Below, one piece after another: positions 26,261 to 26,540 of a DNA stretch of 64,000 nt. Position 1 is the first letter of the stretch; every line of letters begins with the position of its first letter. The notes beneath the pieces are model-generated. The model saw only the letters and a list, made by a program, of their open reading frames with translations. It did not search any database and was not told the origin of the DNA. The position numbers and the translations under genes were made by a program. The stretch is from a virus, in the IMG/VR virus record IMGVR_UViG_3300032288_005778, positions 1 to 64,000 of that record; one strand, 5' to 3'.

Positions 26261-26540
26261 AAATTCTCCTCTTGCCTTGCCTTGCAATTCTTGCAATTAA
26301 CCCAGTTCCCCAAGTCCGGTTTCACCTTTCAGATCCTTATTCTTAGTAATTGTTCTAATACTTGCAATTAACCCAGTTCCCCAAGTCCGGTTTCACCTCG
26401 ATTAATAGATCAAGGGCTTTATCGCTTAACTTGCAATTAACCCAGTTCCCCAAGTCCGGTTTCACCATTTTCTCAGCTATATATTCGTTTTTGCAAATAA
26501 TAACTTGCAATTAACCCAGTTCCCCAAGTCCGGTTTCACC
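26201..26540 (-). CRISPR. Mini CRISPR array: five 37-nt repeats GGTGAAACCGGACTTGGGGAACTGGGTTAATTGCAAG, spacers of 37, 32, 34 and 52 nt
   Basis: Repeats at 26504-26540, 26430-26466, 26361-26397, 26290-26326 and 26201-26237 (last has 2 mismatches). Strand inferred from the cas gene direction and distal degeneracy. Confidence 0.97.

Follow-up and report, generated by a model that had tools for sequence, protein, structure and literature searches.

The window analysed here, the first 64 kb (64,000 nucleotides) of the IMG/VR virus record IMGVR_UViG_3300032288_005778 (82,388 bp, ~83% complete by estimate), encodes a TnpB-like effector followed directly by a CRISPR array, and the effector-proximal spacer of this array, S1, is identical to a segment inside one of the phage's own open reading frames (ORFs). 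We consider it probable that S1 is a recently acquired, self-derived spacer which lacks a protospacer-adjacent motif (PAM) at its native site and is therefore inert. Most likely it is a harmless accident and neither a weapon nor a gene switch. S1 shows what would be expected of an accidental self spacer, i.e. it takes the newest position of the array, it is not conserved, and its target is flanked by TGG without GTN.

The closest isolate is Aphanizomenon phage vB_AphaS-CL131 (CL131), and the record can be described as a CL131-like cyanophage, whose hosts are cyanobacteria that form blooms. In the following, G000 denotes the genome of the window, G001-G005 are its IMG/VR relatives, and L-numbers are individual loci or contigs. 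Relatives of the effector were found at 11 loci in IMG/VR: five at 94-96% protein identity (G001-G005), five at 65-70%, and one short contig.

Self-match of the effector-proximal spacer

The window contains two copies of the S1 37-mer and no more; they lie at 13840-13876 and 26467-26503 on the + strand and show 0 mismatches, and no third copy exists in the whole 82,388-bp record. Two matches were reached in none of 100 dinucleotide shuffles, and the identity grows to 38/38 if the base common to the repeat end and the target flank is counted. The 37/37 match of spacer 1 inside ORF 13752-13985, claimed in a preliminary description of this sequence, is exact, with both copies located. The same description held that the guide, being in mRNA sense, could have only DNA as its target; the sense of the S1 guide is indeed that of the target ORF mRNA when read in the effector-strand orientation, and the restriction to DNA targets stands.

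Self-matching is not a general property of these arrays. In six related genomes 1 of 76 spacers matches its own genome outside the array, namely spacer 1 of G000, and the true spacers of the five relatives give 0 of 72 (a 17-nt repeat-like match of the pseudo-spacer of G000 at 25574-25590 was excluded from this count). The result did not change when the set was enlarged to 113 unique spacers, taken from 12 arrays under a stricter repeat filter (which left out G001 spacer 7) and compared with all sequences collected for the analysis. None of the 10 CL131 spacers matched elsewhere in the complete CL131 genome by BLAST; this whole-genome search was used instead of a comparison of the CL131 array with the phage collection, which had returned 18 places in its own record that were indistinguishable from repeat self-matches. 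Moreover, none of the 113 spacers matched CL131 over more than 17 nt.

Spacer and target do not travel together either. G003 carries the same site with 1 mismatch and has no S1, and the site is also present in L062 and L063. S1 has the allele of G000 (T), not that of G003 and L062 (C). Among the relatives, the body of the target ORF was found only in G003, L062 and L063; of a query of 301 bases centred on the target region, G001, G004 and G005 matched no more than the final ~60 bases, and G002, a partial record, gave no match.

Flanking motif of natural protospacers

Three non-self protospacers of this phage group were found, and their 5′ flanks are GTT, GTC and GTT. The first is the target of G001 spacer 7, which matches G003 with 2 mismatches and G000 with 5, with the 5′ flank ...GAGTT in both. 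This match has the size of a spacer and stands alone, without synteny around it; it is on the strand that does not encode the effector, and G001 itself has no such site. Positional homology was ruled out on these grounds. The phage family thus aims at least one spacer at sibling phages. The other two protospacers come from X1, one of three sequencing runs (X1, X2 and X3) from three different studies; Logan contigs of four runs were placed on positions 13500-27300. Contigs of X1 that align only over S3 run on past 26360, and the reverse complement of this extension ends with GTC; contigs that align only over S2 run on past 26429, and here the reverse complement ends with GTT. For a pre-specified GT at -3/-2, the chance of three out of three is (1/16)^3. 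GTN occurs on the 5′ side of the protospacers only in the effector-strand orientation, and we infer GTN to be the PAM of the window effector.

At the self site, the 5′ flank in the same orientation is GCATTGG. The preliminary description had called this flank not a TTN-type PAM; that it is not a PAM stands, but the expected motif is probably GTN and not TTN. No GTN lies beside the self site in either orientation. A register shift that would use the GTT at -1 to +2 was rejected, as the guide would mispair, and a T-rich Cas12a-type PAM was rejected as well, being present in none of the four flanks. TGG flanks the target in all three independent versions, which are G000, G003 (with L063 identical to it) and L062, the last 96-97% identical to G003. 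A PAM polymorphism at 13877-13882, for which an alignment of related phages had been suggested, is therefore not seen. An exact 37-mer search of IMG/VR returned no GTN-flanked version of the site, and when JGI metagenome contigs were scanned for the protospacer, allowing any letter at the variable base, two were obtained (L062 and L063), both with TGG.

Searches for further protospacers added none with a usable flank. In IMG/VR, S1, S2 and S3 gave 0 exact matches each, and the PAM-proximal 20-mers of S2 and S3 gave 0 matches. The arrays of G005, G003, G002 and L041 had no match among the collected phages at E values up to 0.1 in distant mode, and neither the G005 array nor the window array matched plasmids. 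Against 151 host-family genomes the G005 array gave only matches of 22-38 nt (E 0.001-0.007, two candidates scored per genome), which were taken as chance. Against 20 host-genus genomes the G003 array gave only the L041 leader and one 26-nt repeat-like match, and the L041 array matched only itself in its own assembly.

Growth of the array and recurrence of the phage backbone

The degenerate repeat marks the distal end of the window array, and L012 and L015 have distal spacers in common while their effector-proximal ends differ. From these two observations it follows that spacers are added at the effector side and that S1 is the newest one. The arrays of the relatives contain from 2 to 28 repeats, with spacers that are almost all different, and each lineage has its own repeat variant. 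The window array itself occurs in an empty form. In X2 and X3, single contigs span 13500-24421 (1 difference) and 13500-25603 (3 differences) and cross the protospacer without a break, and contigs flanking the array on both sides are identical to the window. Here the effector-side contig stops exactly 5 letters past one repeat (end point 26285), which is the end predicted by a k=31 model for an array made of the leader, one repeat, the pseudo-spacer and the degenerate repeat. Hence, the backbone including the target is real and recurrent; in X2 and X3, where the phage without S1 has a depth of 18 and 59, respectively, its array is empty. X1 contains both copies of the 37-mer; its unitig breaks at 13848/13877 are explained in the k=31 model by duplicated 31-mers at 13840-13847. 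In X1 the S3 unitigs have depths of 11.2 and 12.5, compared with 19.6 for the genome and 2.6 for the only divergent contig listed, and S1-S3 are flanked by the repeat variant specific to G000. Logan contigs give no information on expression level or strand and lose rare variants, and coverage gaps in RNA or DNA contigs were not counted as evidence.

The backbones of the three studies differ by 0 versus 3 spacers, i.e. the array gains spacers in nature. Pfam searches returned no Cas1, Cas2 or Cas4 match in any of the five related phage records, including the complete G003, while positive-control genomes were detected. The gain of spacers and the absence of these genes suggest that adaptation takes place in trans, probably by host machinery.

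Effector and guide RNA

The effector matches the Pfam families OrfB_IS605 (1.8e-20), Cas12f1-like_TNB (5e-16) and HTH_OrfB_IS605, its PHROG match is annotated 'transposase', and it has two CxxC pairs of the zinc-finger type. In alignments, the catalytic motifs of TnpB and Cas12p correspond to GIDPG, VMEDL and RDSNAA (D255, E339 and D439), so that all three RuvC acidic residues are kept, as had been noted before. With phmmer, the best PDB match was Cas12p (9jfs, E 9e-29, query segments 1-37, 66-239 and 248-454), ISDra2 TnpB was a close second (2.7e-23), and LaTranC and Cas12f scored lower. The 'transposase' gene of CL131, which encodes its effector, is 77.6% DNA-identical to the window effector gene and was assigned to type V-U2 by its authors (PMC6293099). 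A TnpB-like RuvC effector homologous to that of CL131, an adjacent array and no cas1, cas2 or cas4 place the window system in the same type. In the phmmer alignment the effector is ~140 residues shorter than Cas12p before RuvC-III, and ~8 of its residues face a ~50-residue WED-RuvC segment. As the protein is shorter before RuvC-III and the alignment leaves no room for the PAM-interacting (PI) domain, we keep it outside the Cas12p family and regard it, from its sequence, as a probable V-U2 relative of Cas12p.

The CRISPR RNA (crRNA) would have the repeat at its 5′ end and the guide at its 3′ end and would be read from the same strand as the effector, because the 3′ end of the repeat is conserved, the array has the polarity described above, TnpB and Cas12p have this architecture, and GTN is on the 5′ side only in this orientation. 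Repeats of all five clades end with GCAAG or GTAAG on the effector strand. Within the ~330-400 nt from RuvC-III to repeat 1, some blocks do not vary between clades, and the last ~100 nt of the leader adjoining the array are identical in G000, G003 and G005. A near full-length anti-repeat of a putative trans-activating CRISPR RNA (tracrRNA) was found at the same place of the tail in L012, L016 and CL131; for L012 the duplex calculated with RNAduplex has -33.3 kcal/mol, a value reached by none of 300 shuffled repeats. In the clade of G000 only CAATTAAACCC (26782-26792, - strand) faces GGGTTAATTG of the repeat. A 378-nt contig from a metatranscriptome library spans 26511-26888 with a word depth of 44, compared with at most 12 elsewhere on the stretch, and we take it as a weak hint of a transcript.

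Interpretation and alternatives

Taken as a mechanism, the locus would be a phage-borne type V-U2 CRISPR system without adaptation genes, related to Cas12p, in which the effector, a tracrRNA from the 3′ tail of its gene and the crRNAs would cleave the DNA of competing elements at GTN-flanked sites. The array of the G000 backbone, empty at first, may have gained S3, then S2, then S1. In this scheme S2 and S3 would have been taken from GTN-flanked DNA in the same sample, and S1 would have been copied from the phage's own DNA, or from that of an identical sibling, at a TGG-flanked site. Cas12-type enzymes require a PAM for duplex opening; the S1 crRNA would be made and loaded, yet the native site would be neither cut nor stably bound. 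S1 would be neutral and persist because its native site has no PAM, and a PAM-less self spacer would be the only kind seen because GTN-flanked self spacers would kill the carrier.

Several points weigh against an inert S1, or against the data from which we deduce it. Compared with Cas12p, ~140 residues of the REC lobe are absent, ~8 residues stand where Cas12p has a PI domain of ~50, and the PAM-contacting N261/Q262 of Cas12p align with L176/N177 of the window effector; because of these differences, the PAM is not simply transferable by homology. GTN is deduced from only three natural sites and one relative, and for S2 and S3 the flanks were read from Logan contigs as loose-end consensus sequences of 30 letters. 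Three GTN flanks out of three suggest that acquisition selects for the PAM, and if so, a PAM-less acquisition would be rarer. Single-stranded DNA can be a substrate of Cas12-family enzymes even where no PAM is present, and S1 might still be active in this way. The anti-repeat duplex in the clade of G000 is no better than those of shuffled repeats (175 of 300 and 264 of 300 reach it), and the RNAduplex test is strand-symmetric and was not used for orientation. Contigs cannot place S1 and an intact protospacer on one molecule, and the depth of the S1 array is not visible in them.

The strongest competitor, which we nevertheless regard as unlikely, is a costly or transient autoimmunity, in which the effector partly tolerates TGG or attacks the site while it is single-stranded during replication or transcription. 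Carriers would then be handicapped and seen only as the acquisition is very recent, or something would hold the nuclease back and save them, e.g. a modification of the DNA, an inhibitor or the lack of a cofactor. It agrees with this that S1 is the newest spacer, that it was seen in one of the three samples with the backbone, and that the nuclease triad is intact; Cas12p is described as having trans cleavage of single-stranded DNA and dependence on a host cofactor (10.1101/2025.01.20.633832), and a review mentions that some targeting is possible at non-canonical PAMs (PMC6990116). The array with S1, however, was abundant enough for assembly, with S3 arrays at ~60% of phage depth in X1, and X1 lists no variant letters at the protospacer or its flank, though contigs drop rare variants.

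We give still less weight to a population-level chimera, in which the spacer array and the intact protospacer would come from different co-occurring strains joined by the assembler. The record is a metagenome assembly and arrays break de Bruijn graphs; relatives are present in X1 (10 of the 33 placed contigs at 90-99% identity), and the stretch of leader identical in G000, G003 and G005 also counts in its favour. Against it, contigs of two other studies, differing from the window at 0-3 positions, confirm the backbone on either side of the array and through the target, S1-S3 are bounded by the G000 repeat variant, the S3 depth of 11-12.5 contrasts with 2.6 for the divergent contig, and S1 has T and not C at the variable base. 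Misassembly had been named as what could overturn the self-match; for the backbone it is excluded by the two independent studies, and the link of spacer array and target on one molecule is indirect.

Equally improbable is that S1 is a weapon against sibling phages, aimed at relatives with a working PAM, with the carrier spared by TGG. Conflict of this kind is documented for virus-borne arrays (PMC6858448), G001 spacer 7 is directed at G003 and G000 next to GTT and has no site in G001, and the target ORF belongs to the variable genes, some relatives having it and others not. For S1 itself, TGG in three of three independent site versions, with no GTN version in IMG/VR (exact 37-mer) or in the two JGI contigs, and the exact identity with the carrier's own allele point the other way. 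Hence the preliminary suggestion of a weapon against near-identical siblings with PAM escape is not supported for S1, as no sibling with a PAM was found among the three versions of the site.

The other proposal made there, RNA-guided control of the operon leading towards dcd, fares slightly worse and appears very unlikely. An S1 ribonucleoprotein would bind the template strand in the 77-aa ORF and dampen the operon. A packed operon of the early type contains the site, which S1 matches perfectly, a regulatory role for V-U2 was speculated on in the CL131 paper (PMC6293099), and binding-only type V effectors are described, e.g. Cas12m (PMC11013384). On the other side, the catalytic triad is intact, there is no PAM, and the target is in the middle of an ORF and not in a promoter. 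S1 is absent from G003, which has the target, and from the X2 and X3 backbones with their empty arrays, where the phage is abundant nonetheless, and self-matches number 0 of 72 in the five relatives and 0 of 10 in CL131. A regulatory guide would be recognised by a nuclease-dead effector or a partial match, and by a spacer conserved with its target, and we found intact motifs, a 37/37 match and no co-conservation. Least probable of all is that S1 is a deliberate PAM-less self guide, for which the template strand would be recognised only when single-stranded during transcription or replication, and which would tune the nucleotide-metabolism operon or act as a timing or self-sensing signal; if true, a phage would be controlling itself by RNA guidance, through a TnpB-like nuclease of its own that is catalytically intact.

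Features of the locus and of related phages

Positions of the features are collected in Table 1.

Table 1. Coordinates of the CRISPR locus, the self site and related features in the window
Feature	Position	Strand	Remarks
Effector ORF	26511..28274	-	587 aa; TnpB-like core to ~residue 467, then low-complexity tail into repeat 1
Tail, leader and putative tracrRNA region	26541..26873	-	candidate anti-repeat CAATTAAACCC at 26782-26792
CRISPR array	26201..26540	-	five 37-nt repeats directly downstream of effector ORF
Repeats	26504-26540, 26430-26466, 26361-26397, 26290-26326, 26201-26237	-	the last one degenerate (2 mismatches)
Spacer S1	26467..26503	-	adjoins effector and leader; self-matching; guide on - strand = TTATTATTTGC...
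Spacer S2	26398-26429	-	
Spacer S3	26327-26360	-	
Pseudo-spacer ('spacer 4')	26238-26289		52 nt; contains ribosome-binding site and ATG of ORF 25631-26260
Self protospacer	13840..13876	-	37/37, within 77-aa ORF; non-target strand = - strand = mRNA sense
PAM position of self site	13877..13879	-	TGG on - (CCA on +), not GTN
Target ORF	13752..13985	-	77 aa, S1 match inside
G001 spacer 7 target	25112..25145	+	5 mismatches in G000; 5′ flank GTT at 25109-25111

The target ORF is part of a packed - strand operon, which reads from 14822 through a HAD/PNK-like gene (13976-14461), the target, 13268-13759 and 12694-13203 to the dCTP deaminase gene (12117-12701). Its 77-aa product has no family match in Pfam or PHROGs, and the ESM Atlas gave no usable match. 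At the other end of the array, the degenerate terminal repeat falls in the first codons of ORF 25631-26260, and 17 nt of the pseudo-spacer linker recur at 25574-25590, ahead of ORF 25227-25565.

The effector frame is open through the tracrRNA and leader region in four of the five clades (26511-26936 in the window; L012, L016, L041 and L006 among the examples), and RKP.SDS..ECHQE, SISAN and, at the very end, [FH]TQLT[IL]W are conserved in this tail. Only in CL131 does the frame end earlier, at WEHGET, and the window frame is open for 120 codons further into repeat 1. The region may be both coding and an RNA scaffold. In G004 (L011, 7568-7655) there are only two repeats, 14 nt apart, and the tail region is shortened to 229 nt between RuvC-III and repeat 1, compared with 396, which looks like a deletion in the tracrRNA and leader region.

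Other arrays show further peculiarities. Spacer 1 of L012 and spacer 3 of L015 are versions of one spacer that differ at 4-6 positions, as if one site had been sampled more than once from copies that had diverged. G001 (L007, 8135-8668) has a second mini-array with two degenerate repeats, 425 nt past the main array, and spacer 7 belongs to it. Spacers 6, 9 and 16 of G005 (L017) have a 17-nt core in common, with both orientations represented. This core occurs in 10 IMG/VR stretches (9 other contigs; L052-L061), where it resembles the 3′ end of a gene, and in none of the 151 host-family genomes. Only 17-20 nt of these stretches are matched, so that no flank is usable, and the real target is an unsampled variant.

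Relatives of the window system occur in phages of Aphanizomenon and Dolichospermum. L041, scaffold21 of Dolichospermum circinale AWQC310F (84.6 kb), encodes an effector relative of 87% identity and has 14 repeats of its own repeat type; its phage was probably co-assembled with the bacterium or resident in it, and gives a clue to the host of this phage group.

Comparison with known systems

The V-U2 system of CL131 (C2c8; Cas12f3 in the 2020 classification) is found in the same phage group and has the same order of a TnpB-like effector followed by an array, with no other cas genes, and its leader, the blocks of the tracrRNA region and the 3′ end of its repeat are conserved with the window. It differs in having 10 spacers, none of them self-matching, an effector that stops at ...WEHGET and another repeat sequence.

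Cas12p ('Cas12 hacker', type V-P) is described as a phage-encoded protein of 500-700 aa, intermediate between TnpB and Cas12, an active nuclease on double-stranded DNA with a 5′-GTN PAM by depletion assay and in vitro cleavage. The same report gives it a tracrRNA, a 37-nt repeat, a disordered C-terminal domain, natural hosts that are unknown, and dependence on host thioredoxin through a REC insert (10.1101/2025.01.20.633832). It is the best match of solved structure to the window effector, is likewise phage-encoded with a 37-nt repeat, and its GTN PAM agrees with the three natural protospacers. In the window effector, RuvC-III ends near residue 450 and not at ~597, and, judged by the alignment, the PI domain and most of the insert that binds thioredoxin would not fit in. 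Repeats of the window group end with CAAG and not with the AAAC that, as described for Cas12p, forms a pseudoknot with UUUG of the tracrRNA. Judged from the letters, a CTTG in an invariant block of the tail could play the part of this UUUG.

Self-targeting spacers tend to occupy the newest position of an array. Accidental self spacers of bacteria and archaea (Stern et al. 2010, as cited in PMC6990116) resemble S1 in being rare, non-conserved and without an apparent PAM, and self-targeting of the last kind is classed as non-effective in that review. Unlike in those cases, 'self' is here the genome of a phage of the lytic type, with an array that has no adaptation genes of its own.

Viruses with mini-CRISPR arrays carry arrays only and use the effectors of their hosts. 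Such virus-carried arrays are described as acting against close relatives (PMC6858448), which is the likeness to G001 spacer 7; in contrast, the window phage encodes a nuclease of its own, and the match of S1 is to the very genome that carries it.

In the literature searched we found no biochemical study of V-U2. For type V-U2 effectors, the locus provides evidence from nature on how the guide is oriented and for a PAM of the GTN type, and it turns adaptation in trans of a phage-borne array into a testable question. That the phage's own DNA was sampled and a PAM-less copy survives would show CRISPR autoimmunity of a virus through what survives it, and the locus connects the system of the cultured phage CL131 with the structurally solved Cas12p.

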